Of a DNA stretch of 8,947 bases, positions 1-8,947 are shown in pieces. Numbering within the stretch: position 1 is the stretch's first letter; the number at the start of each line of letters is the position of its first letter. This DNA is from a virus (lineage: Duplodnaviria > Heunggongvirae > Uroviricota > Caudoviricetes), in the IMG/VR virus record IMGVR_UViG_2698536443_000011, positions 1-8,947 of that record; one strand, given 5' to 3'. Made by a program: the position numbers and the translations under genes. A model generated the notes under the pieces. The model ran no database searches. It was not told the DNA's origin and saw nothing but the letters and a program-made list of their open reading frames with translations.

Positions 1-28
1 TGACTAGTCTAAAAACTAGTATTAAGAC

Positions 29-48
29 TATCACTTATTTAAGTGATA
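29..48. promoter_or_regulatory. Perfect 8-bp inverted repeat with 4-bp spacer downstream of the fiber gene (operator-like or weak hairpin)
   Basis: tatcactt-attt-aagtgata at 29-48, 17 nt past the fiber stop. A second AT-rich palindrome lies nearby (actagt at 3-8 and 15-20). No U-tract. Confidence 0.3.
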
Positions 49-64
49 CTGGTTGTCTGGAGAT

Positions 65-1324
65 TCAGGGGGCCAGTCTAACCTGATCATATGCCGTAAC
101 GTTGTAACCATTACCACCATGAATACGGAAAAACACACTACGCCCGTTTTGTGGAATTGTTGCGGTTGCCAATTTGAAATATGCAGATACGTTTTCGCTA
201 GAATTGGGAACAGACATAACGACGTTTTTAACAAACATCTTATCAACTTCGGCTTTGGTGTATGCACCAATCTCGCCAGGAGTCGGCTTATCACCTTCGT
301 GATACATCTTATAGCTAAAGTTCTTCTGTCCTTCTCTATCAAAACCATAGGTTTCAACACGAGATCCACCAGACGCATAACGGAAAGTAAATCCGCGACC
401 GTGCGCTTTACCGGCAGAATGAGGAACGTTAAGAGTTAGATCCATGAGTCCATCTTGACCATTGGTACGGAAAGCACCAAAGTAGTTAAGATCTCTCGCT
501 GTCTGGTCTTCCAAATAGTTAGCTGTCTTGCTTAACAGATACCCACCATGCTTAGTATTGGTATTCTTCTTGATGTAAGCAGCATCGGCACTACCTTCAA
601 TAGAATCAATTCGCTGGTTAGCTGCGGCAATTGCGGCATCGGCACTGGCCTTGTTATTTGCAACAGTTCTTTCAATGGCTGTCTTATTCGCAGAGACCGT
701 ACTAGTAAGATTGGTGATCTTCGTGTCCGCATCTTTCTTATTATCCGCTACCGTCTTTTCTATTGCTGATTTATTTGCTGCGACAGTATTCGTTAAGTTG
801 GTAACGTTGGTATTAGTCTGATCAACTCGCGCATTAATATCTGTCTTGTTCTTGTTAATTGTCGCGTTGATAGTATCGCGGGTTGAAGTAATAGTCTGAT
901 TCAGTTCAGTCTTAGCAGCCGCCAGAGCGTTAGCAGCTTCGGTTTTATTGTTACCTACTGTGGTAGTCAAAGCATCAATTCGTTTGTTGGCTGCGGTATC
1001 GCCAGCAGTGATTGAAGCATTGAGGGTATCACGGGTAGAAGTGATAGTCTGATTAAGTTCAGCTTTAGCACTAGCCAGATTATCAGCAGCTTCTTTCTTA
1101 TTTGCTGCAATAACCTTATCTGTGTTGGCCTTGTTGGTGTCTACTTTCGTATTCAGTTCAGCGTGTTTTTCTGGAGAAACACTAATTTGGACTACGTTAT
1201 TATTTTTGTCTTTGGTGTAAATCACATGATCCGCCAGTTGTAAGGCGATCTCACCCTGTGATAATTGTTCCGGCGTTGGTTTTTTACCAGCCGTTTGTGT
1301 GCGTTTAAATTGGATCGACTGCAT
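65..1324 (-). CDS. Tail fiber-like protein with a degenerate-repeat shaft and a C-terminal globular (receptor-binding-like) domain
   Basis: 419-aa ORF with SD AGTGAGGTGATTCG-ATG. The central ~250 aa is built from short degenerate repeats with a T-V/I-x-x-N-K-x-x-A core, including two near-identical ~26-aa copies (SAKAELNQTITSTRDTLNASI / AAKTELNQTITSTRDTINATI) 51 aa apart. KPTPxEIGA-type motifs occur at the N-terminus (KKPTPEQLSQGEIA) and C-terminal domain (GDKPTPGEIGAYTKAE). The C-terminus is rich in Gly/Tyr/Phe/Asn, as in receptor-binding tips. Stop TGA at 65-67. Confidence 0.6.
   Translation of the reverse strand: MQSIQFKRTQTAGKKPTPEQLSQGEIALQLADHVIYTKDKNNNVVQISVSPEKHAELNTKVDTNKANTDKVIAANKKEAADNLASAKAELNQTITSTRDTLNASITAGDTAANKRIDALTTTVGNNKTEAANALAAAKTELNQTITSTRDTINATINKNKTDINARVDQTNTNVTNLTNTVAANKSAIEKTVADNKKDADTKITNLTSTVSANKTAIERTVANNKASADAAIAAANQRIDSIEGSADAAYIKKNTNTKHGGYLLSKTANYLEDQTARDLNYFGAFRTNGQDGLMDLTLNVPHSAGKAHGRGFTFRYASGGSRVETYGFDREGQKNFSYKMYHEGDKPTPGEIGAYTKAEVDKMFVKNVVMSVPNSSENVSAYFKLATATIPQNGRSVFFRIHGGNGYNVTAYDQVRLAP
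870..1095 (-). repeat. In-frame degenerate direct repeat inside the fiber gene (period 153 bp = 51 aa), within a wider field of shorter degenerate repeats (~600-1150)
   Basis: Plus-strand segments around 871-940 and 1024-1093 are near-identical (for example agtctgat at 893-900 and at 1046-1053), encoding the two ELNQTITSTRDT(L/I)NA(S/T)I copies. A second pair, TNLTNTVAANKSAIEKTV / TNLTSTVSANKTAIERTV, is spaced 29 aa apart. Confidence 0.6.
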
Positions 1325-1337
1325 CGAATCACCTCAC

Positions 1338-1371
1338 TATAAAACAGGAATAAGGGAGGCGTTAACCTCCC
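1338..1371 (-). terminator. Probable intrinsic terminator between the tube (V-like) and fiber genes
   Basis: Minus-strand RNA reads GGGAGGU-UAAC-GCCUCCC (7-bp stem including one G-U pair, same UAAC tetraloop as the capsid terminator) followed by the U-rich but interrupted tract UUAUUCCUGUUUUAUA. Confidence 0.45.
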
Positions 1372-1403
1372 AGCGTTCATGTTTTATTTAGGTAGGAGAA
1401 TCC

Positions 1404-2237
1404 TTAGTATTCGCCGAAATCGATCCGGTCAGTCTTAGCCACTGCGCCAATTTCGCTAGGTGTCGGTTTCTCATTGGTGGAATATACCTTGATCCATTCA
1501 GAGCGACCGTTTTCCTGAATATTTCGGACGCGTAAACGTGGTGCGCCAGAAGTATTACAGGTTAATTGCCATGCGCCATGCTCATTAGCTTGAAGGTGAA
1601 TTAATGATGTGTCGGCTGAATATGGATTACCGCTAGCAGTTCCCTTGTAAGTTACGAAACGGTTTCCGGCTAAAGCATCACTATCAATCGGACCTGTGAA
1701 TGGATGTACACCTGCACCTACGCCATAATCCCCGCGACGGAGAAGACGACCCTCCGTTGCAATACCGCGATCCAAAATCCCGCCATCTGGTTCAAGTTTA
1801 AATTCCAGTGTTACAGCTTTGTTATCACTACCACGGGTTTTGTGTGATGTGACGTAAGCATCATAGATGACATAGTAACCAGTGTTAGCAGCACTATAGC
1901 CAGAGTTCACAACATAGAACATACGGAAGCGTAAAGGTGTTTTATCCTCTACCGCTTTCATCAACATTGCTTGATGTTCGTCATCCAGAACACGGTTTAA
2001 CGTGAGTGTTGTCGGTTCCAGTCTACGATAACCAGCAAGTTTCCCCGTAGCGTCCTGATCGTACTCTTCCAGAGTTTCAATCTCTGTGGATTCTGTTAGC
2101 GTAGGGAATGCTGCGACGTTCTCAATAGAACTAAAGCTAGGATCGAAAAAGTCCGGCTGGCTATCGACCATAGTAGAAACGGAGACTTCAACATGCGACC
2201 CCGTAAAAATATCTAAGTTATCATGCGTAATATTCAT
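1404..2237 (-). CDS. Major tail tube protein (lambda gpV-like N-terminal domain) with a C-terminal fiber-like module in place of the usual Ig-like domain
   Basis: 277-aa ORF in the V position after the FII-like and U-like genes. The core EEYDQD...TLTLNRVLDDEHQAMLMKAVEDKTPLRFRMFYVV...VTLEFKLEPDG has the same layout as lambda gpV YDDSYLDDED...[33 protein letters not shown] (from memory). The C-terminal ~55 aa (...SGAPRLRVRNIQENGRSEWIKVYSTNEKPTPSEIGAVAKTD) is homologous to a module in the downstream fiber protein. SD TAAGGGGTAATA-ATG. An intrinsic terminator follows. Confidence 0.5.
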   Translation of the reverse strand: MNITHDNLDIFTGSHVEVSVSTMVDSQPDFFDPSFSSIENVAAFPTLTESTEIETLEEYDQDATGKLAGYRRLEPTTLTLNRVLDDEHQAMLMKAVEDKTPLRFRMFYVVNSGYSAANTGYYVIYDAYVTSHKTRGSDNKAVTLEFKLEPDGGILDRGIATEGRLLRRGDYGVGAGVHPFTGPIDSDALAGNRFVTYKGTASGNPYSADTSLIHLQANEHGAWQLTCNTSGAPRLRVRNIQENGRSEWIKVYSTNEKPTPSEIGAVAKTDRIDFGEY

Positions 2238-2246
2238 TATTACCCC

Positions 2247-2669
2247 TTAAAAACGCGCTAGATAAGAAAATTTAAGGCTAAGTGTCCCAACGATACCACC
2301 ATCACTAGAATCATCGTCATAATCGGTATTAGAGGCTACTGGAGTGATATCTGAAATTGAGAAGCCCAAATCTTTAAAACGTGGGTTATCCGGCTGAATC
2401 TGGATTATCTGGCAAATACCCTCATGGATTTTTGTTTCATGAATCTGAGAATATAATTGCATTTCGATAACGCATTCAGCTTGCATTGCATTACCACCAC
2501 GGACCCTAGTGTAAGTCTCATTCATGCCAGTAATCCAACAAACCACGTCATCACTAAAACCTTGCTGAGCTTGTTCTACGTTTAAAGCCAGACCTAAATC
2601 TTGTTCGATAATATCTTGCAAGGCGCGTTTGATTTTCAGTCTCGGCATATTATTAACGGTAGCGAGCAT
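2247..2669 (-). CDS. Tail terminator / head-tail connector protein, lambda gpU-like
   Basis: 140-aa ORF. The C-terminus NTDYDDDSSDGGIVGTLSLKFSYLARF resembles the lambda gpU C-terminus GYDYRRDDDAGLWSSADLTYVITYEM (from memory). SD AGGGGGTACAC-ATG. Its TAA stop is embedded in the SD of the next gene. Confidence 0.45.
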   Translation of the reverse strand: MLATVNNMPRLKIKRALQDIIEQDLGLALNVEQAQQGFSDDVVCWITGMNETYTRVRGGNAMQAECVIEMQLYSQIHETKIHEGICQIIQIQPDNPRFKDLGFSISDITPVASNTDYDDDSSDGGIVGTLSLKFSYLARF

Positions 2670-2943
2670 GTGTACCCCCTGCTAAAGTGATAAAGCAATC
2701 ACAAGTATTGTCACCATTGCGCTTAACGTATTGAACTTTGAAACGCTGGTTTTCTACTGTGACAATATCACCTTGCTTTAAGTCTCCCTCACGACAGAAT
2801 AGAAATTCTGTTTCTGTCATTACCCCCGATTCGTCGGTAGTAGTAATTTCATGATAAGCACGAATTGATTTACCACCTTCCACCGAAAATACAGGAGCAC
2901 TTCGGAACATTCTTGATAATTGTGATTCTGATAATTTGAACAT
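2653..2943 (-). CDS. Head-tail joining protein, lambda gpFII-like
   Basis: 96-aa ORF. LFCREGDLKQGDIVTVENQRFKVQYVKRNGDNTCDCFITL parallels lambda FII LFVRTDEVRQLRRGDTLTIGEENFWVDRVSPDDGGSCHLWL (from memory). SD TAAAGGGGGTAACT-ATG. Its 3' end overlaps the next gene by 17 nt. Confidence 0.55.
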   Translation of the reverse strand: MFKLSESQLSRMFRSAPVFSVEGGKSIRAYHEITTTDESGVMTETEFLFCREGDLKQGDIVTVENQRFKVQYVKRNGDNTCDCFITLAGGTHARYR

Positions 2944-2971
2944 AGTTACCCCCTTTATGGAGTATTTACAT

Positions 2972-3000
2972 ACAAAAAAGCCCCACCGTTAGGCAGGGCT
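2972..3000 (-). terminator. Rho-independent terminator downstream of the capsid gene
   Basis: Minus-strand RNA reads AGCCCUGCC-UAAC-GGUGGGGCU followed by UUUUUUGU: a 9-bp stem with two G-U pairs, a UAAC tetraloop and a U-tract. It lies directly after the TAA that closes the in-frame extension of the capsid ORF. Confidence 0.7.
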
Positions 3001-3091
3001 AATTATTATTCTTTAGTTTTACGCTGTTTTTTAGCTGTGGCTTTCGCCTTAACCGTCTGGGATTCTTCTTCCGGTTCAGGAATCAGATTTT

Positions 3092-3112
3092 CTTCCCCCA
3101 AATCGGGGGAAG
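3092..3112 (-). promoter_or_regulatory. Perfect GC-rich hairpin 23 nt downstream of the capsid UGA stop; no U-tract
   Basis: Plus strand cttccccc-aaatc-gggggaag: 8-bp perfect stem with a 5-nt loop. The flanks on both strands lack a U-tract, so it is not a canonical terminator. Confidence 0.4.
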
Positions 3113-3134
3113 GTTCAGATGGTTCTACAGGAGT

Positions 3135-5147
3135 TCATTCAGCGGAGATGTGAAGAACTTTCAGAGCTTCCGGCTGAGTAACAACATAATCCAGGTCTAC
3201 CCAGATTCGCGGAACGATAGCAGACTGTGCGCGGTAGGTAGTGTCGTCCATATCCAGTTCCAGACCGCCCCACTCACCAATGGTGATACCGTCGAACGCG
3301 CCCAGAACGATGTGGTCTGCCGGGATAACACCAGAAGTAACTACTTCGTAACCAGCCAGTTTGCCGTTTTCGATGATATAACCGGAAACGCCGTTATCTT
3401 TCAGGGTAGATTCCAGTTCAGCAGCAGTTGCACCGCTCATCGCAAACTTGATCGCCTGAGCAGGAACGCCAGCGTCGGTCAGTGCTGCAATTTCTTTCAG
3501 GAAGTCTTTGTAAGAGAAAGCGGCTTTCTTAGTAACGCGACCCGCGTCTACCAGTTGCTTAACCAGACCAGCCGGACCACGGTCGTTAGCTTTATCAGAC
3601 AGAATCAGTTGTTCCAGTTTGATGCGAACAGCTTTGTTAATGTGATCAGTGATCAGGGTAGCGATGCCGGGAACTTGCTTTATGCTAGCTCTGCTGATCG
3701 GATTCCCACCAGCGAACGTCTTAGGAGCCATTTTCACGTTTGCAAATTCAGCTTTACCTTCCGGTGCAGCACCGTTTTCATCAACGAAGCCGAAAGCGTC
3801 AACGCTGGAAGCGGTCATTTTTGGTACTGCGATCGGGGAAGTCAGGCCAGACAGAACGGTTACACCGAGGCGGCCTAAAACACTCTGAGGCAACAGCATT
3901 TCGATGTAGGATTCAGTCAGCAGTTTTTCATCAGTAACAGCGGTCAGAGTAGCTTTGGTGTTACCTTCGGAAGCAGCACGCAGAGCAGCAGCCGGAACGA
4001 ATACAGAGCCACCACGAGCAGCACGACCACGCTGCATAGTTGCAGTAGCAGCCATTGCGGAATATTCAGCTTCGTTAGCACCCAGAGCAGCACCATCTAC
4101 CAGAGAGCGAATTACGTTGTTCAGGTCAAAGATTTTTTCCATTTTAGAGTCCTTAATTTGTTGTTCGTTATTACGTTGAGCATTGGTAATGTTATTTAGT
4201 GCCTTAGTGCGGAATGCTTCCGGCGTAATTCCTTTATTTGCCAATGCGCGTTTAAATTCTTCATCGTCTTCGTTAATATTTAGCTCGCGTGCAATTTCGC
4301 GAATTTCTAATTCGTCTTCTTCGGAACGTTCAGCCACTTCTTCGATTTTTTCTTCTTCAACCGGAGCGGCTTCACGTTCTTCTTTTACTTCTTCTGTTTC
4401 CCGAACAGTTGAACTATCATCATCAACACTTTCAGGATGTTCAGCGTCTTTTCCGTCTTCGAGATTTTCATCTTCTTTATTCTCTTCAACTTGGCGCTCT
4501 TGAGTTTCTTCTACTTCCGATTCTTTATTTTCTTCTACCGGAGTTTCTTCAACCTGAGCGGCTTCTTGTTCTTCTTTGATTTCTTCGATTTGTTCTTTAG
4601 TCATATCGTGTTTAGCCTCCAAATTAACTGTGATAGTATTTAGAGAGCGATTTAAACCGACCGTATCGTCTGCGGGAACGGTGACAAATGAGAGTTCATA
4701 GGGTGCCCACTTAGTAACAATCAATTGTCCTTTGGTGTAGTCGATGTGATATTCTTTAATGTCATAACCGACAGAAATTTTTTCCATCGTACCTTCAATG
4801 ACTTTATTACGAATATCATTAGCCAAAGTGCCATGCTTAGAGAATTTAACCAGAGCACGGCCTACGTTATCCGCATCGATTCGAGCGTCGCAGACTACAC
4901 CTAAATGATTATCGAAATTATGATTGAACAGCAACGGAGCGTTATTATTCAGACGAGACAGATCAACCGCTTCCGGTGTATGTACCAGAATTTCATCTAA
5001 TACCACCATTTCTTGATTTTGCTCATCCCAGAATTGGCGCTGATAAGGCTGTTCACTGGAGAAAGCAATTTCAAATTCGTATTGATCGTTATGCCCTTCG
5101 TTAATAACTCCACCGTAACCGTTAAGTTCGCGGCGAAATTTAAGCAT
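3135..5147 (-). CDS. Tripartite head protein: N-terminal prohead serine protease domain (HK97 gp4/S78-like), Glu-rich scaffold-like linker, C-terminal HK97-fold major capsid protein
   Basis: Residues 1-170 carry protease-like motifs (NHNFDNHLGVV..., MEKISVGYD with a candidate catalytic Ser, ELSFVTVPADD resembling the HK97 protease C-terminal motif). Residues ~175-300 are extremely acidic (EEIKEEQEAAQVEETPVEENKESEVEE...). Residues ~330-670 are Ala/Gly/Thr-rich and capsid-like. SD AAGGTGATTAA-ATG at 5147. Stop TGA at 3135-3137, followed 135 nt later by a strong intrinsic terminator. Same architecture as the tripartite capsid gene described for Salmonella phage Gifsy-2. Confidence 0.8.
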   Translation of the reverse strand: MLKFRRELNGYGGVINEGHNDQYEFEIAFSSEQPYQRQFWDEQNQEMVVLDEILVHTPEAVDLSRLNNNAPLLFNHNFDNHLGVVCDARIDADNVGRALVKFSKHGTLANDIRNKVIEGTMEKISVGYDIKEYHIDYTKGQLIVTKWAPYELSFVTVPADDTVGLNRSLNTITVNLEAKHDMTKEQIEEIKEEQEAAQVEETPVEENKESEVEETQERQVEENKEDENLEDGKDAEHPESVDDDSSTVRETEEVKEEREAAPVEEEKIEEVAERSEEDELEIREIARELNINEDDEEFKRALANKGITPEAFRTKALNNITNAQRNNEQQIKDSKMEKIFDLNNVIRSLVDGAALGANEAEYSAMAATATMQRGRAARGGSVFVPAAALRAASEGNTKATLTAVTDEKLLTESYIEMLLPQSVLGRLGVTVLSGLTSPIAVPKMTASSVDAFGFVDENGAAPEGKAEFANVKMAPKTFAGGNPISRASIKQVPGIATLITDHINKAVRIKLEQLILSDKANDRGPAGLVKQLVDAGRVTKKAAFSYKDFLKEIAALTDAGVPAQAIKFAMSGATAAELESTLKDNGVSGYIIENGKLAGYEVVTSGVIPADHIVLGAFDGITIGEWGGLELDMDDTTYRAQSAIVPRIWVDLDYVVTQPEALKVLHISAE

Positions 5148-5167
5148 TTAATCACCTTTAATTGATT

Positions 5168-5184
5168 GGGGGCATTGCGCCCCC
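5168..5184 (-). promoter_or_regulatory. GC hairpin in the portal-capsid intergenic spacer, just upstream of the capsid SD
   Basis: Plus strand gggggc-attgc-gccccc: 6-bp GC stem with a 5-nt loop. It sits between the portal stop (5193) and the capsid SD (about 5152-5158). No U-tract follows on the minus strand. Confidence 0.35.
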
Positions 5185-5192
5185 GTTGGTTA

Positions 5193-6704
5193 TTAGGGAT
5201 CGGCTGGGGAATTTTTTTCTTCACCCTCACCATCAACGATAATATTTAGTGCGCTCTTTTCGGCTTGAATCTCTGAGAATACTTTTTCAGGATCGTCACC
5301 ACGTTCTAATATAACGGCAGTACGTGATTTAAGTCCTTTATCAATTAAAGCAATCTCGGCGTTTACGTCTTTAATTGGATCGACGGATTCAAAACGCGGA
5401 CGAATAATAGTAGTGTTCTCGATAATATGCGGAATTGCCGTAATACGAATCGGAACAATACCACGCGCGGAATAATGGCGTAGATACGCTTCGAAAATTG
5501 GCAATACCACTGTTTCAATTAATTTGTTTTGCAGTGCTTTAACGCGCGTTCTTTGAAGTAATTCGCCGTAGCGTGCAGCGCTGTAATTTATTTGGCTAGT
5601 ATCGCCAGTTAAGCCCTGATTGAACACGCCAAGACCCATTGCTATGCTAGTGAACATACCAGCGTTAAATGAATTGAAATCATCGCCGCTTTGCGTGGAT
5701 TGAATACTCTTGATCGTTGCCCCTTCCGGCAATTCCTGAATAGTACCCGGCGCGAAATCGTGAATAACTTCCGGCGCTTGATATTGTTCATCATCTTCAC
5801 CAGTATCAAAATCGTCACCAGAATCTTTCGGACGCTCGATGAACGCCATGCTACTAGCTGAAATTCGTTTCTGGACCAGTACAGCTTCGCGGAATGCGTC
5901 TTGATGTGCGATATCCTTAATCACTGGCAGGAAGTCAGTCACCCCACGCAGAGATTCAGCCGCAAGTGGTTGATAATAATGGCATACTTGCGAAGCATCT
6001 ACGCGATAGTTATCACCTGTGTAAGTCTGAGTCAGTAGGTTGATTTTACGAAACCAAAATGCAACAGGGCGCATTGTTTCTACGTCATACTCGATCCCCT
6101 GATAGATAGCACGTTCTTTGCTTACTTCACGGTTGAGCGTCCAGTCGCACTTATCAGCAGACAGGATAGAAACATTTAACTCATTGTTTTCTTTGGTTAA
6201 AACAATGAAGCACTCACCGCCCATTACGCGCTCACGTTCAGCCATTACCAGCAATTCACGGAAGTTAAAGCGACCGTTACGAGAGAAGCGTTTAGCATTC
6301 TGCGCCCACTTCCAGAAAGCATTCTCGATCTGCTTATTCAGTGCGCTATCAAGTTTGCCATTTGATTTAACGATTGATGGCTTCGGATCTAGGCCAGTAC
6401 CTACCACCATATCGGTTATGTATTGCGTGTAGCGACTGCCTACGGAAGTGTTTAAGGCCAGAGTACGACCCTGATCATAAAGGCGCTTACCGTTCGATTT
6501 GAGAGCCTTATTGAAGGTTCCTGTAATGGTGTCTTGTTGAAGTGATCCATCAATACGATCACCAACCAGTCCTAAACTCCGTTGAGATAGGTCTTTCTGG
6601 AATTTTTCTACTTGCTTATCGATGAAAATTTTTGGTTGTTGCTGGCGGTGATTAGTTTTAACTGGAGTTTCTACCGCCTTTTTGCGTCGAAAAAGATTAA
6701 ACAT
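5193..6704 (-). CDS. Portal protein, lambda gpB family
   Basis: 503-aa ORF immediately downstream of terminase and the W-like gene. The segment FTSIAMGLGVFNQGLTGDTSQINYSAARYGELLQ parallels lambda gpB IAAGLGVSYEQLSRNYAQMSYSTARASANE (recalled from memory). Acidic C-terminus. SD TAAGGGGTAAATC-ATG. Stop TAA at 5193-5195. Confidence 0.8.
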   Translation of the reverse strand: MFNLFRRKKAVETPVKTNHRQQQPKIFIDKQVEKFQKDLSQRSLGLVGDRIDGSLQQDTITGTFNKALKSNGKRLYDQGRTLALNTSVGSRYTQYITDMVVGTGLDPKPSIVKSNGKLDSALNKQIENAFWKWAQNAKRFSRNGRFNFRELLVMAERERVMGGECFIVLTKENNELNVSILSADKCDWTLNREVSKERAIYQGIEYDVETMRPVAFWFRKINLLTQTYTGDNYRVDASQVCHYYQPLAAESLRGVTDFLPVIKDIAHQDAFREAVLVQKRISASSMAFIERPKDSGDDFDTGEDDEQYQAPEVIHDFAPGTIQELPEGATIKSIQSTQSGDDFNSFNAGMFTSIAMGLGVFNQGLTGDTSQINYSAARYGELLQRTRVKALQNKLIETVVLPIFEAYLRHYSARGIVPIRITAIPHIIENTTIIRPRFESVDPIKDVNAEIALIDKGLKSRTAVILERGDDPEKVFSEIQAEKSALNIIVDGEGEEKNSPADP

Positions 6705-6714
6705 GATTTACCCC

Positions 6715-7212
6715 TTATCGCGTAAGACGTAATTTGATATTTTTAATCGGGCTAATTCCCTGTTTACGTCGTTCGGCTTGAATTAATTTAGATAACTGAC
6801 GTTCATAATCGACTTTTAGAGTCTGGAGAACACCCAATGACTCATAAACGAAAGTATTCCCTTTCACTGTCATTTGAGATAATGCGGCTTCGTCCCCAGA
6901 TAAACGGGCGAAAATAACTTGCTCGATTAAGGCGATAGTTTCCCGCAGATATTCTTTTTTGGATTGTTTGGCGAATACTGGTAAAACAGTTAATTCCTGC
7001 ATTGATATCAGTTCTTCTTCCAAAGTTATTACGATGGTATATTTACCTTCGGCAAAATCTAAGGTTTTAATCTCATGATTAGCCGGAGAATCATCAACCT
7101 GATAGATGATACCTTTATTATTATTTCCTACCTGAATTGTTACACCCTCTTCATTCGCCAGCGTGACTTTTTCGCCTTTACGAATTACTAAGGGAATTAG
7201 TTCTAAACTCAT
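6715..7212 (-). CDS. Hypothetical virion morphogenesis protein; C-terminal third weakly resembles lambda gpW (head completion), N-terminal ~90 aa unassigned
   Basis: 165-aa ORF filling the gap between terminase and portal genes, the position gpW occupies in lambda. Shine-Dalgarno TAAGGGGTAATT precedes the ATG. Its TAA stop is embedded in the portal gene's SD. The C-terminal LGVLQTLKVDYERQLSKLIQAERRKQG loosely resembles lambda gpW (SVSDLKKYIAELEVQTG...RRRG). The functional call is weak. Confidence 0.5.
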   Translation of the reverse strand: MSLELIPLVIRKGEKVTLANEEGVTIQVGNNNKGIIYQVDDSPANHEIKTLDFAEGKYTIVITLEEELISMQELTVLPVFAKQSKKEYLRETIALIEQVIFARLSGDEAALSQMTVKGNTFVYESLGVLQTLKVDYERQLSKLIQAERRKQGISPIKNIKLRLTR

Positions 7213-7284
7213 AATTACCCCTTATTTAATTGTTATTGGATTAACAATATTTAGGAGTAAGCCGCCCCGAAGGACGGCGAGTTA

Positions 7285-8947
7285 TTAGAACGATGTTACC
7301 CAGCTACGGCCTCTATTTGGGCGTCTGGCGATGTTTTGACGTTGTGGTCGTGTGATTGGCTTAGTTTCTTCGATTTGCTCGTTAGATTGCGTTTCAGGAG
7401 CTTTTACGGGTTCTTCGACAACACGGTTTAAGCTGTCTTTCATTGCAATGAGTTTATCCCATGACATTTTTGAAAGGACGTAGCGAGAAGCAGCATAGCT
7501 ATAAACCAGACAGTCGAGAGCCTCGTTTCGGGTACTACCTGGATTTTTCACCCAACGCACGCCAGTAGTAGTACGCTTGATGGATTCACTCAAAAGCTGA
7601 TCGAGATAATCATCAGGGACGGTGTCTGATATTTCTAAGGCAATATGAGGATTATCTTTCAGGTTTCTAACCAGCATTTCACGAACAGCAGATTTACCAA
7701 CGTTAACGCCCAGCATAAGCAATTCATGACCACCTGTGCGGGTAGGTTTAACCGGAATCACTGGAGCATTACCAGATGAACTACCTTTGATCGCGTGTAG
7801 ATTCTTCCACTTGCCGCAAATACGGTATCCGGCTTGAGTGAATCGACCGTTCGATGTATCAAGGAAGCTGGCGAGCATTGGTACACGTTCACCATTAACG
7901 TTATAGAATTTGGTTTTCTTGAAGTTAACCAGGCGATCCCAAACAGGTGATTCATATCGTTCACAGTTATGATCGTAAAAGCTGCGGTGATCCAGAATGT
8001 AAACCTTATCTTTCGCTACACCTAAGATGGTAGATTCTGCGCGGTCCAATTGCTGGTCAATTCCTGAACACAAGAAAATCACGTCATCAGGGATATTCTC
8101 GATAGAAACATCTGTTTTGAGTTGTTCCAGTTCATTTGCTTCTACTGCCGTGTCCTGATCGTCGTATACCTTGCCTAACACGGTGTTATAAAATGATTGT
8201 AGATCAAAGGATTGCCACGCATGACTAAAATCAACCACACAAGCGCGGATCGTGCTGAATGGTGAATACAGACGGCTGATCCAGAATCCGGCTACTTCAC
8301 TTTCACGGGTTACTCGCCATTCACCAGCAGCCACCGCCCTGATCCGCTCTCCTTCTGTCCATGCGTTCTTACAGTGGGGGCAAATATAACGAGCGGTATC
8401 AGGATCGGGTAAGTTCTTACCATCGATGTTACGCCATTCAAATTGAACGTTTTCCCACTCGATCACCTGGTGTTCCCCGCAATGAGGACACGGAACAAAA
8501 AACATACGCATATCACTTGATAACCATTGCTGGTTAATGCTTCCCAGCTTACTGGTCGGGGTACTGGATACGACTAATCGGCCTTCGTCGCCAAAGGTAG
8601 TTAAACGGTTAGCAGCCAGTGCCACCGGATCACCTTCTTCTGAGGCTGTAGCAGCATCGATTTCGTCTAGTAGTCCGACCTTTGCAGTCTTACCGCGCAG
8701 GGTCGATGGACTGGTTAGCGATACCATGTACAGGAAGTGATTCGTTTTTAGCTGTAGCTGGTTATTGTTGTTAACCGCATTGCGATCATTCTTGTCTGTA
8801 ACCACGTCTTTTAATGCATCACATGCTTCGATAGACGGTCGGTGAACCGCCCCGGGTTTCCTGGAGAGTGTTTTATCTGTGAACTCAGGCTGCCAGATCA
8901 TCGTTTCCGATGGAAGCATAATAAGCTTTTTCTGCTTCTGCCGGAGG
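7285..8947 (-). CDS. terL: Terminase large subunit, lambda gpA family; 5'-partial (reading frame stays open to the window edge at 8947, so the true start lies outside the window)
   Basis: Translation contains the paired Cys/His motifs [16 protein letters not shown] and [12 protein letters not shown], plus [17 protein letters not shown] and [15 protein letters not shown]. From memory these match lambda gpA (FHVACPHCGEEQ / ARYICE / AYSPFTTW / AGIDSQLDRYE / RRNEALDCFVYALAA). The VGLLDEIDA stretch resembles a Walker-B-like segment. The frame upstream of the first Met (8919) has no stop before 8947. Stop TAA at 7285-7287. Confidence 0.85.

Follow-up and report, generated by a model that had tools for sequence, protein, structure and literature searches.

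A tail-tube paralog with a gp36-like C-terminus, encoded beside a gp37-type fibre gene, as a candidate fibre connector in E. coli prophages

Introduction

Why would a tail-tube protein end like a piece of tail fibre? This question is raised by a stretch of phage DNA of 8,947 nucleotides (Caudoviricetes; IMG/VR record IMGVR_UViG_2698536443_000011, positions 1 to 8,947), which we refer to as the window. The late operon of an E. coli-type prophage fills the window, with all genes on the minus strand. In this operon a 277-residue protein of the tail-tube type and the product of the fibre gene directly downstream of it share a short motif, KPTPxEIGA. A first-pass annotation took this as a sign that the tube protein had acquired the distal domain of the fibre by domain shuffling within the operon, and suggested that the domain serves receptor or glycan binding, or acts as a docking site.

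We arrive at a different account. The 277-residue protein appears to be a specialised paralog of the tube protein that the phage itself encodes, and its C-terminal third resembles a minimal gp36, the connector of the T4 long tail fibre. The reading we prefer, and rate slightly better than an even chance, is that the protein forms a ring in the tail and that its mini-gp36 connector docks the neighbouring fibre. The parts of the two genes on which the argument turns are listed here, in window coordinates.

1404..2237, minus strand: 277-residue open reading frame (from the list of open reading frames; stop codon at 1404-1406), a predicted tail-tube-protein paralog with a fibre-type, gp36-like C-terminal connector
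1749..2213, minus strand: N-terminal tail-tube-fold domain, residues 9-163
1614..1748, minus strand: glycine-rich linker RRGDYGVGAG...GNRF...NP, residues 164-208
1476..1613, minus strand: beta-strand fibre module, residues 209-254, with invariant Q216, W223, R236, R238 and W248
1443..1469, minus strand: KPTPSEIGA motif, residues 257-265, the probable equivalent of NKPQAADNDF near the N-terminus of T4 gp36
1407..1430, minus strand: C-terminal tail DRIDFGEY, residues 270-277, which resembles the gp36 end VQDFGYY; proposed contact for the fibre N-terminus
65..1324, minus strand: tail fibre gene, truncated, with 415 authentic codons and 4 read-through codons into an insertion sequence
1139..1324, minus strand: gp37-type N-terminal region of the fibre, residues 1-62
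248..538, minus strand: internal fibre module, residues 263-359, ending in KPTPGEIGA (263-289)
1..79 (to about 96), no strand given: outer end of an insertion sequence of the IS3 family, which interrupts the fibre gene; multi-copy in E. coli genomes

Results

The 277-residue protein's N-terminal domain has the beta-sandwich fold of tail-tube proteins, and the protein matches PHROG 158 ('major tail protein') with an E-value of 1.4e-8. To this extent the first-pass description of a tube protein holds. The closest complete relatives of the window are E. coli prophages at 91-94% identity, and our intact reference locus, L001, is a prophage in E. coli strain PSJ-22. L001 encodes a separate tube protein of 157 residues that matches PHROG 158 far better (E 1.6e-20) and aligns with the tube domain of the 277-residue protein at 31% identity (E 1e-18). 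Judged by these alignments the phage's own tube protein and the 277-residue protein are paralogs. Given this paralogy, and the better PHROG 158 match of the 157-residue protein, the 277-residue one is most likely not the major tube protein.

The order of genes is constant in PSJ-22 and more than 60 related loci. An FII-like gene and a gene for a protein of about 140 residues are followed by the 277-residue family, a large fibre and a tube protein of 156-267 residues, usually with chaperones, a tape measure, a distal tail protein and a J-like tip after it. The fibre is 561-1302 residues long, has a gp37-like start and begins 10-83 nucleotides after the family gene. It is thus the 156-267-residue paralog, and not the family gene, that takes the slot directly upstream of the chaperones and tape measure, with the fibre gene between the two. 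The window itself stops at the insertion sequence, short of the tube-chaperone-tape-measure region.

Two observations on these loci are recorded in their own right. In L001 a 168-residue 'tail fiber adhesin' (8501-9007, minus strand; PHROG 1121, E 2e-33) lies between the tube protein and the chaperone genes, an unusual position for an adhesin. A tape-measure-sized gene is missing from L005, L006, L051, L053, L057, L059, L061, L062, L064, L066 and L071, where a J-like tip protein of 1226-1392 residues lies within about 500 nucleotides of the tube paralog. Gene calls are available for L005 and L006; these loci have no chaperones, and a small DUF6950 protein sits between the tube paralog and the tip. 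Such loci may be short-tailed derivatives or defective elements.

What, then, is the C-terminal third? Sequence relationships to T4 gp36 appear at several levels of the family. Residues 225-381 of the member P0085 align with residues 6-165 of T4 gp36 (E 1e-15), and the member P0095 passes the Pfam model of gp36, PF03903, with 28.8 bits for a threshold of 26. The profile of the family matches the gp36 motif FKIYSEYNKPQAADNDF over 34 columns (hhalign, 66% probability, E 5.7e-5), a weak match that covers the motif only, and the 277-residue protein compared directly with gp36 by BLASTP gives an E-value of 0.62. The two proteins also end alike. T4 gp36 ends in VQDFGYY, as do 114 of 118 gp36 homologs in DFGYY; the 277-residue protein ends in RIDFGEY, which has the gp36-type D-F/Y-G-x-Y/F form, and a D-[FLAE]-G-x-[FYLE] terminus is present in nearly all full-length family members examined.

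The partner of gp36 is found in the next gene. In T4, gene 36 lies directly before gene 37, and gp36 binds with its C-terminal end to gp37's N-terminal end (review, PMC9603124). The 277-residue gene is likewise placed directly upstream of a gp37-type fibre gene, and every fibre downstream of a family gene has a gp37-like start (60+ loci in both cases). In the window, fibre residues 1-62 align with residues 4-65 of T4 gp37 at 32% identity (E 2e-11) and match PHROG 1699, 'long tail fiber distal subunit'. The tail of the family protein and the start of the fibre also vary together by lineage: DFGE[YF] occurs with IQFKRT, DLGTF with IKFKR[ST], DLGYL with IQMRRT and DAG[EVT]F with VKHYRT. This co-variation in sequence suggests a contact.

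An AlphaFold model of the 277-residue protein, built from 34 homologs, has three parts. Residues 13-163 are mostly confident, residues 164-208 have low confidence (pLDDT below 50), and the C-terminal region is a moderately confident beta module (pLDDT 52-81; strands at 210-218, 221-228 and 234-240) followed by a short helix at SEIG. The model sets the tube domain apart from the C-terminal region. The first-pass annotation had thus correctly seen a separate fibre-type region where some homologs have an Ig-like domain; an example of the latter is P0195, a 252-residue homolog with an Ig-like domain after its tube domain. The 277-residue protein has no Ig, FN3 or BIG2-type domain in that position according to Pfam, and its C-terminal region matches the tail-fibre PHROGs 32072 and 4277. 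It has no Pfam match at E <= 0.1 and no NCBIfam match. For the module, a search of PDB sequences returned a weak match to residues 221-279 of the XM1 collar spike gp40 (E 0.4), a portion that is absent from the modelled part of the XM1 structure.

The architecture of 277 residues is kept throughout, from E. coli to Proteus. In the alignment of 34 sequences P258 is invariant alongside W223, R236, R238 and W248, and the linker has eleven invariant positions (G172, G174, G176, G182, D185, G191, N192, R193, T196, N204 and P205). Despite its low pLDDT the glycine-rich linker is among the most conserved parts of the family, and distant long-fibre members keep it too. It probably folds in an oligomer or against a partner only.

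We now turn to the shared motif. The coordinates and peptides of the first-pass annotation are exact: window 1404-1570 is the stop codon and residues 223-277 of the open reading frame, the fibre segment compared with it is residues 307-359 (window 248-406), and the motif at the fibre N-terminus is residues 14-27 (window 1244-1285). The claimed homology between the C-terminus and the fibre segment exceeds chance, and is short and mostly the motif. BLASTP aligns residues 230-270 with fibre residues 318-359 at 15 identities in 42 (36%, E 2e-4), eight of which fall in KPTPxEIGA. In the comparison with shuffled controls that had been proposed as a check, residues 155-277 score 77 against the fibre by Smith-Waterman; the shuffles average 32.4 +/- 5.0 with a maximum of 60, none of 2000 reaches 77, and the remaining proteins of the window score 24-36. 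Both proteins match the tail-fibre PHROG 4277 at common positions, the 277-residue protein at profile positions 536-571 and the fibre in a match ending at 581. A profile alignment of the family with the fibre is weak and confined to the motif (hhalign, 12% probability).

A recent copy is a different matter. The DNA encoding the two motifs (1443-1469 and 263-289) differs at 6 of 27 bases, five of them at synonymous third positions, which argues against it, and the module is no more similar to the neighbouring fibre than to unrelated fibres. A third copy had been proposed at the fibre N-terminus, at 1244-1285, and is not supported. BLASTP gives this pair an E-value of 0.71, and in a motif hidden Markov model (HMM) search with shuffles TAGKKPTPE alone aligned, at about 5-6 bits; the N-terminus of T4 gp37 gives no score with the motif HMM. 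By its sequence the stretch is part of the T4 gp37-type N-terminal region. The alpha-beta repeat of gp34 and gp12 (Granell et al.) was considered as a source of KPTPxEIGA and ruled out, that repeat being G..R.AT..E...G.....[IV][TS]P..L. KPTPxEIGA is a generic module-end element of gp36/gp37-type fibres and not a product of local shuffling.

The fibre gene has a history of its own. Its product matches tail-fibre PHROGs and, apart from 11 scattered substitutions, is the 1179-residue fibre of L001 through codon 415, after which it reads into the insertion sequence. Since the gene is cut after codon 415 of about 1180, the segment that had been called the distal domain of the fibre lies in its proximal third. 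Homology to intact fibres begins at base 80 of the window. The sequence of positions 1-79 is multi-copy and found in 4677 of 5426 E. coli genomes, and a copy in L002 adjoins an IS3-family transposase; we take it to resemble the left end of IS2. Because of this interruption the fibre-anchoring device is probably non-functional in this genome, and this prophage probably makes no functional long fibre.

In comparisons by tblastn against phage genomes, the internal fibre module shares 42-47% identity with residues 222-334 of an Aeromonas T4-like gp36(-37) protein and 64-95% with gp37 of the RB49/Phi1 type. A word-indexed homolog search with the fibre segment found two partial proteins only, a PDB sequence search found the Mu fibre protein S (8ju3) at a marginal E-value of 0.0048, and no tandem DNA repeats were detected in the fibre gene. 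As a separate observation, the DNA of window 80-541 shares 98% identity with part of gp37 from the T4-like phage ELT4 and 76-85% with RB49-like phages, which points to a recent exchange of a fibre module between temperate siphophages and T-even-like myophages. Between the 277-residue gene and the fibre gene a consensus scan found a terminator-like hairpin (1354-1371, minus strand; GGGAGG-TTAACG-CCTCCC and a T-rich tail), which from its sequence may reduce fibre expression relative to the upstream genes.

How far does the family extend? An exhaustive search with the family profile returned 301 cluster representatives (clusters at 50% identity), which differ widely in form. About 17 are connector-type proteins with a gp36-like terminal tail, and about 8 are plain tube proteins of 151-165 residues. 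About 100 are complete fibres of 700-1500 residues, in which the first ~240 residues are the tube domain and linker; an S74 chaperone forms the end of those sampled. A further ~20 long fibres have the C-terminal module alone, with profile positions of about 190-268 repeated 3-8 times. This module of about 80 residues turns up in many fibres, at E-values of 1e-13 to 1e-19 over the whole library. The tube domain heads about 100 clusters of complete fibres and is therefore a general fibre anchor. That it is so widespread as an anchor, and the module so common as a fibre unit, argues against a local and recent shuffle.

Longer relatives of the 277-residue protein (342-698 residues, up to 1209) insert one to several more fibre modules. 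Each inserted module ends in '[VI]Y...KPTP..[IL]GA', often followed by G[DE]TMTG, and the insertions sit between the first motif and the unchanged terminal D-[FLAE]-G-x-[FYLE]. The annotation of the family is poor: 86 close homologs of the 277-residue protein are named 'hypothetical protein', and across the family the names are 'hypothetical protein' or 'phage tail protein' only, with no Pfam or NCBIfam model. Scans with Pfam and NCBIfam likewise found no family covering the repeated module of the long fibres. When a distant long member was compared with sequenced phages by tblastn, only the C-terminal fibre part was matched among the best 25 listed records. One database record deserves a comment. 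The first 21,560 bases of GenBank PQ671644 ('Escherichia phage DCP80'), a 141-kb record filed under Straboviridae, are a lambdoid-type head and tail module that includes a 698-residue family member, which suggests that the record is a chimeric assembly or mislabelled.

The remaining genes of the window are those of a lambdoid-type head module.

7285-8919, minus strand: gpA-type large terminase
6715-7212, minus strand: W-like joining protein
5193-6704, minus strand: lambda-family portal
3135-5147, minus strand: protease-capsid fusion, 670 residues
2653-2943, minus strand: FII-like protein
2247-2669, minus strand: 140-residue protein

The protease-capsid fusion has a very acidic, E/D-rich, low-complexity linker of about 120 residues (roughly residues 180-300) between its S78 protease and its capsid domain. 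Directly past this gene there is a second terminator-like hairpin (2979-3000, minus strand). The two hairpins may set expression ratios in the late operon; the number of terminator-like sites in the window is not above that of shuffled sequence.

Discussion

In this work we have established the fold of the 277-residue protein, its paralogy with the tube protein, its conserved architecture and synteny, and the sequence relationships to gp36 and gp37. The mechanism that we propose goes a step further. Through its tube-fold domain (residues 9-163) the protein would become part of the tail and form a ring of the tube type there, probably just one, in a neck-proximal or tip-proximal position. Six C-terminal arms would leave the tube surface via the conserved glycine-rich linker. 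The C-terminal third would act as a minimal gp36 connector, consisting of one beta-strand module, the KPTPxEIGA junction motif and the D-F-G-x-Y/F tail. The next gene encodes the long fibre, whose gp37-type N-terminus would dock onto this tail, in the way that gp37 is joined to gp36 in T4. We infer the formation of the ring, its position, its copy number and the physical contact between tail and fibre. Of the functions offered in the first-pass annotation, the docking site fits the evidence best and receptor or glycan binding less well.

Several points weigh against this proposal. The tail-to-fibre contact would follow from sequence patterns, and shared descent confounds the lineage-wise co-variation of tail and fibre start. 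A search for natural fusions between a D-F-G-x-F family tail and a gp37-type start found none. The gp36 link of the 277-residue protein comes by transitivity through the longer family members: the protein itself has no Pfam or NCBIfam match, falls short of the PF03903 threshold, and it aligns with gp36 over just 34 profile columns (66% probability). Model quality is poor for the linker (pLDDT below 50) and for the C-terminal module (52-81, and 48 when the C-terminal region is modelled alone). A hexameric tube ring that holds a trimeric fibre poses a problem of symmetry. Finally, distant members are complete fibres by themselves, so the 277-residue form could be an autonomous stub and not an adaptor.

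Is this stub the better explanation? The tube-like domain would then anchor a short fibre or whisker, perhaps a neck whisker or assembly sensor, without binding the neighbouring fibre. That the anchor needs no partner is shown by the ~100 distant clusters of complete fibres, which start with this domain and end in an S74 chaperone of their own, and the module may also be present in the neck collar spike gp40 of XM1 (weak, E 0.4; PMC10457771). We nonetheless consider a whisker unlikely: the connector subfamily lacks a receptor-binding or chaperone end and always has the gp36-type tail, and the next gene always begins with a gp37-type region, the part that gp36 binds in T4. We give similarly little credence to the idea that the protein is the major tail tube protein after all, with a fibre-like module that, in the manner of lambda gpV's Ig-like domain, would be displayed over the full length of the tube as a weak adhesin or glycan-binding element. 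Its tube fold, the separate C-terminal domain, the Ig-like domain of P0195 at the equivalent position and the name of PHROG 158 would agree with such a role. That said, the relatives have, in the usual place ahead of the chaperone and tape-measure genes, a separate 157-residue tube protein with a far better PHROG 158 match, decoration leaves the invariant gp36-like tail and the strict adjacency to a gp37-type fibre unexplained, and family members of 446-1209 residues would be implausibly bulky as a major tube subunit.

The two remaining explanations concern the origin of the motif. Recent shuffling within the operon, in which part of the fibre gene was copied into the tube gene next to it, would account for a common KPTPxEIGA in adjacent genes, and we find it very improbable. 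The two regions share just 36% identity over 42 residues, with the mostly synonymous motif differences described above, and the fibre module is nearer to T4-like gp37 and gp36 proteins (42-95% identity) than to the 277-residue protein. Moreover family members as distant as 38% identity all keep the module, which is found from E. coli through to Proteus, in the longer forms, and also in hundreds of distant clusters. Scarcely credible at all is the idea that a short proline-rich peptide looks alike in both proteins by chance, without common ancestry. Most identities do lie within nine residues, and the 12% profile-to-fibre alignment would suit it, but the shuffles (0 of 2000) and the profile search reject it, with both proteins at common PHROG positions and the ~80-residue module recurrent at E-values of 1e-13 to 1e-19.

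The proposed tube-paralog connector is built from components of known kinds, namely tube paralogs, decorated tube proteins and gp36/gp37 modules. In the literature searched we found no description of a tube-paralog/gp36-like fusion. The closest parallel is T4 itself, with which the family shares the order of connector then fibre, probably a connector motif K[IV]YSxxxKP... near the start of the gp36-like part, the D-F-G-x-Y/F end and the fibre start IQFKR..AG.KP....GE[IL]A; longer members align with gp36 over 160 residues. T4 gp36 is a free trimer of 221 residues; at the knee of a myovirus fibre its N-terminal end is bound to gp35. Here the gp36-like part is shortened to about 55 + 8 residues and covalently joined to a tail-tube domain in a lambdoid-type siphophage.

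Tube proteins with additions are also familiar. The SPP1 tube protein gp17.1* is decorated with an FN3 domain. In lambda gpV (PMC12617516) and T5 pb6 (PMC10038345) the tube domain is likewise followed by an extra C-terminal surface domain, of the Ig-like type. These decorations are dispensable Ig or FN3 domains on a major subunit, in contrast to a fibre-type module with a conserved terminal docking tail on a minor paralog.

Side-fibre mounting on non-contractile tails has been structurally solved in few systems, notably T5/DT57C and Ur-lambda. In T5 the side fibres are held by the p132 collar, and beneath it lies a ring formed by the tube paralog p140 (PMC10038345; PDB 7qg9). T5 p140 consists of two fused tube domains and bears no decoration, and the collar is made by a separate Ig-like p132 dodecamer, whereas here a single tube domain bears the connector itself, with no detectable sequence relationship to p140. 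The same study noted that the anchoring of side fibres must differ in lambdoid phages (PMC10038345). The Ur-lambda Stf answers the same need, that of fixing trimeric side fibres near the tube of a siphophage tail with six-fold symmetry (PMC12617516). It does so with its own N-terminal collar domain, 12 copies of which wrap the gpV/gpM junction from outside; here the tube-fold anchor would presumably be part of the tube stack, and anchor and fibre are separate polypeptides.

Two lessons for annotation follow from this locus. A match to the tube fold alone does not identify the major tube protein, and a fibre truncated by an insertion sequence can make a proximal module appear distal.

What would the connector mean more broadly? 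We tentatively suggest, with somewhat less than even confidence, that lambdoid-type siphophages and their tape-measure-less relatives mount long side fibres via a tube-paralog ring with a mini-gp36, that the gp36-gp37 joint is old and portable across tail morphotypes, and that the tube domain heads a large unannotated superfamily (~300 clusters) of tube-anchored fibres. If true, six-fold tails would have a third and new means of mounting trimeric fibres, in which the anchor is a tube paralog with a gp36-type plug; the T5 p132 collar and the lambda Stf collar are the other two. It would also put a name to a large family of 'hypothetical proteins' that is common in the prophages of E. coli, Shigella and Salmonella, and the D-F-G-x-Y/F tail with the IQFKR start would provide a defined junction for fibre swaps in host-range engineering.
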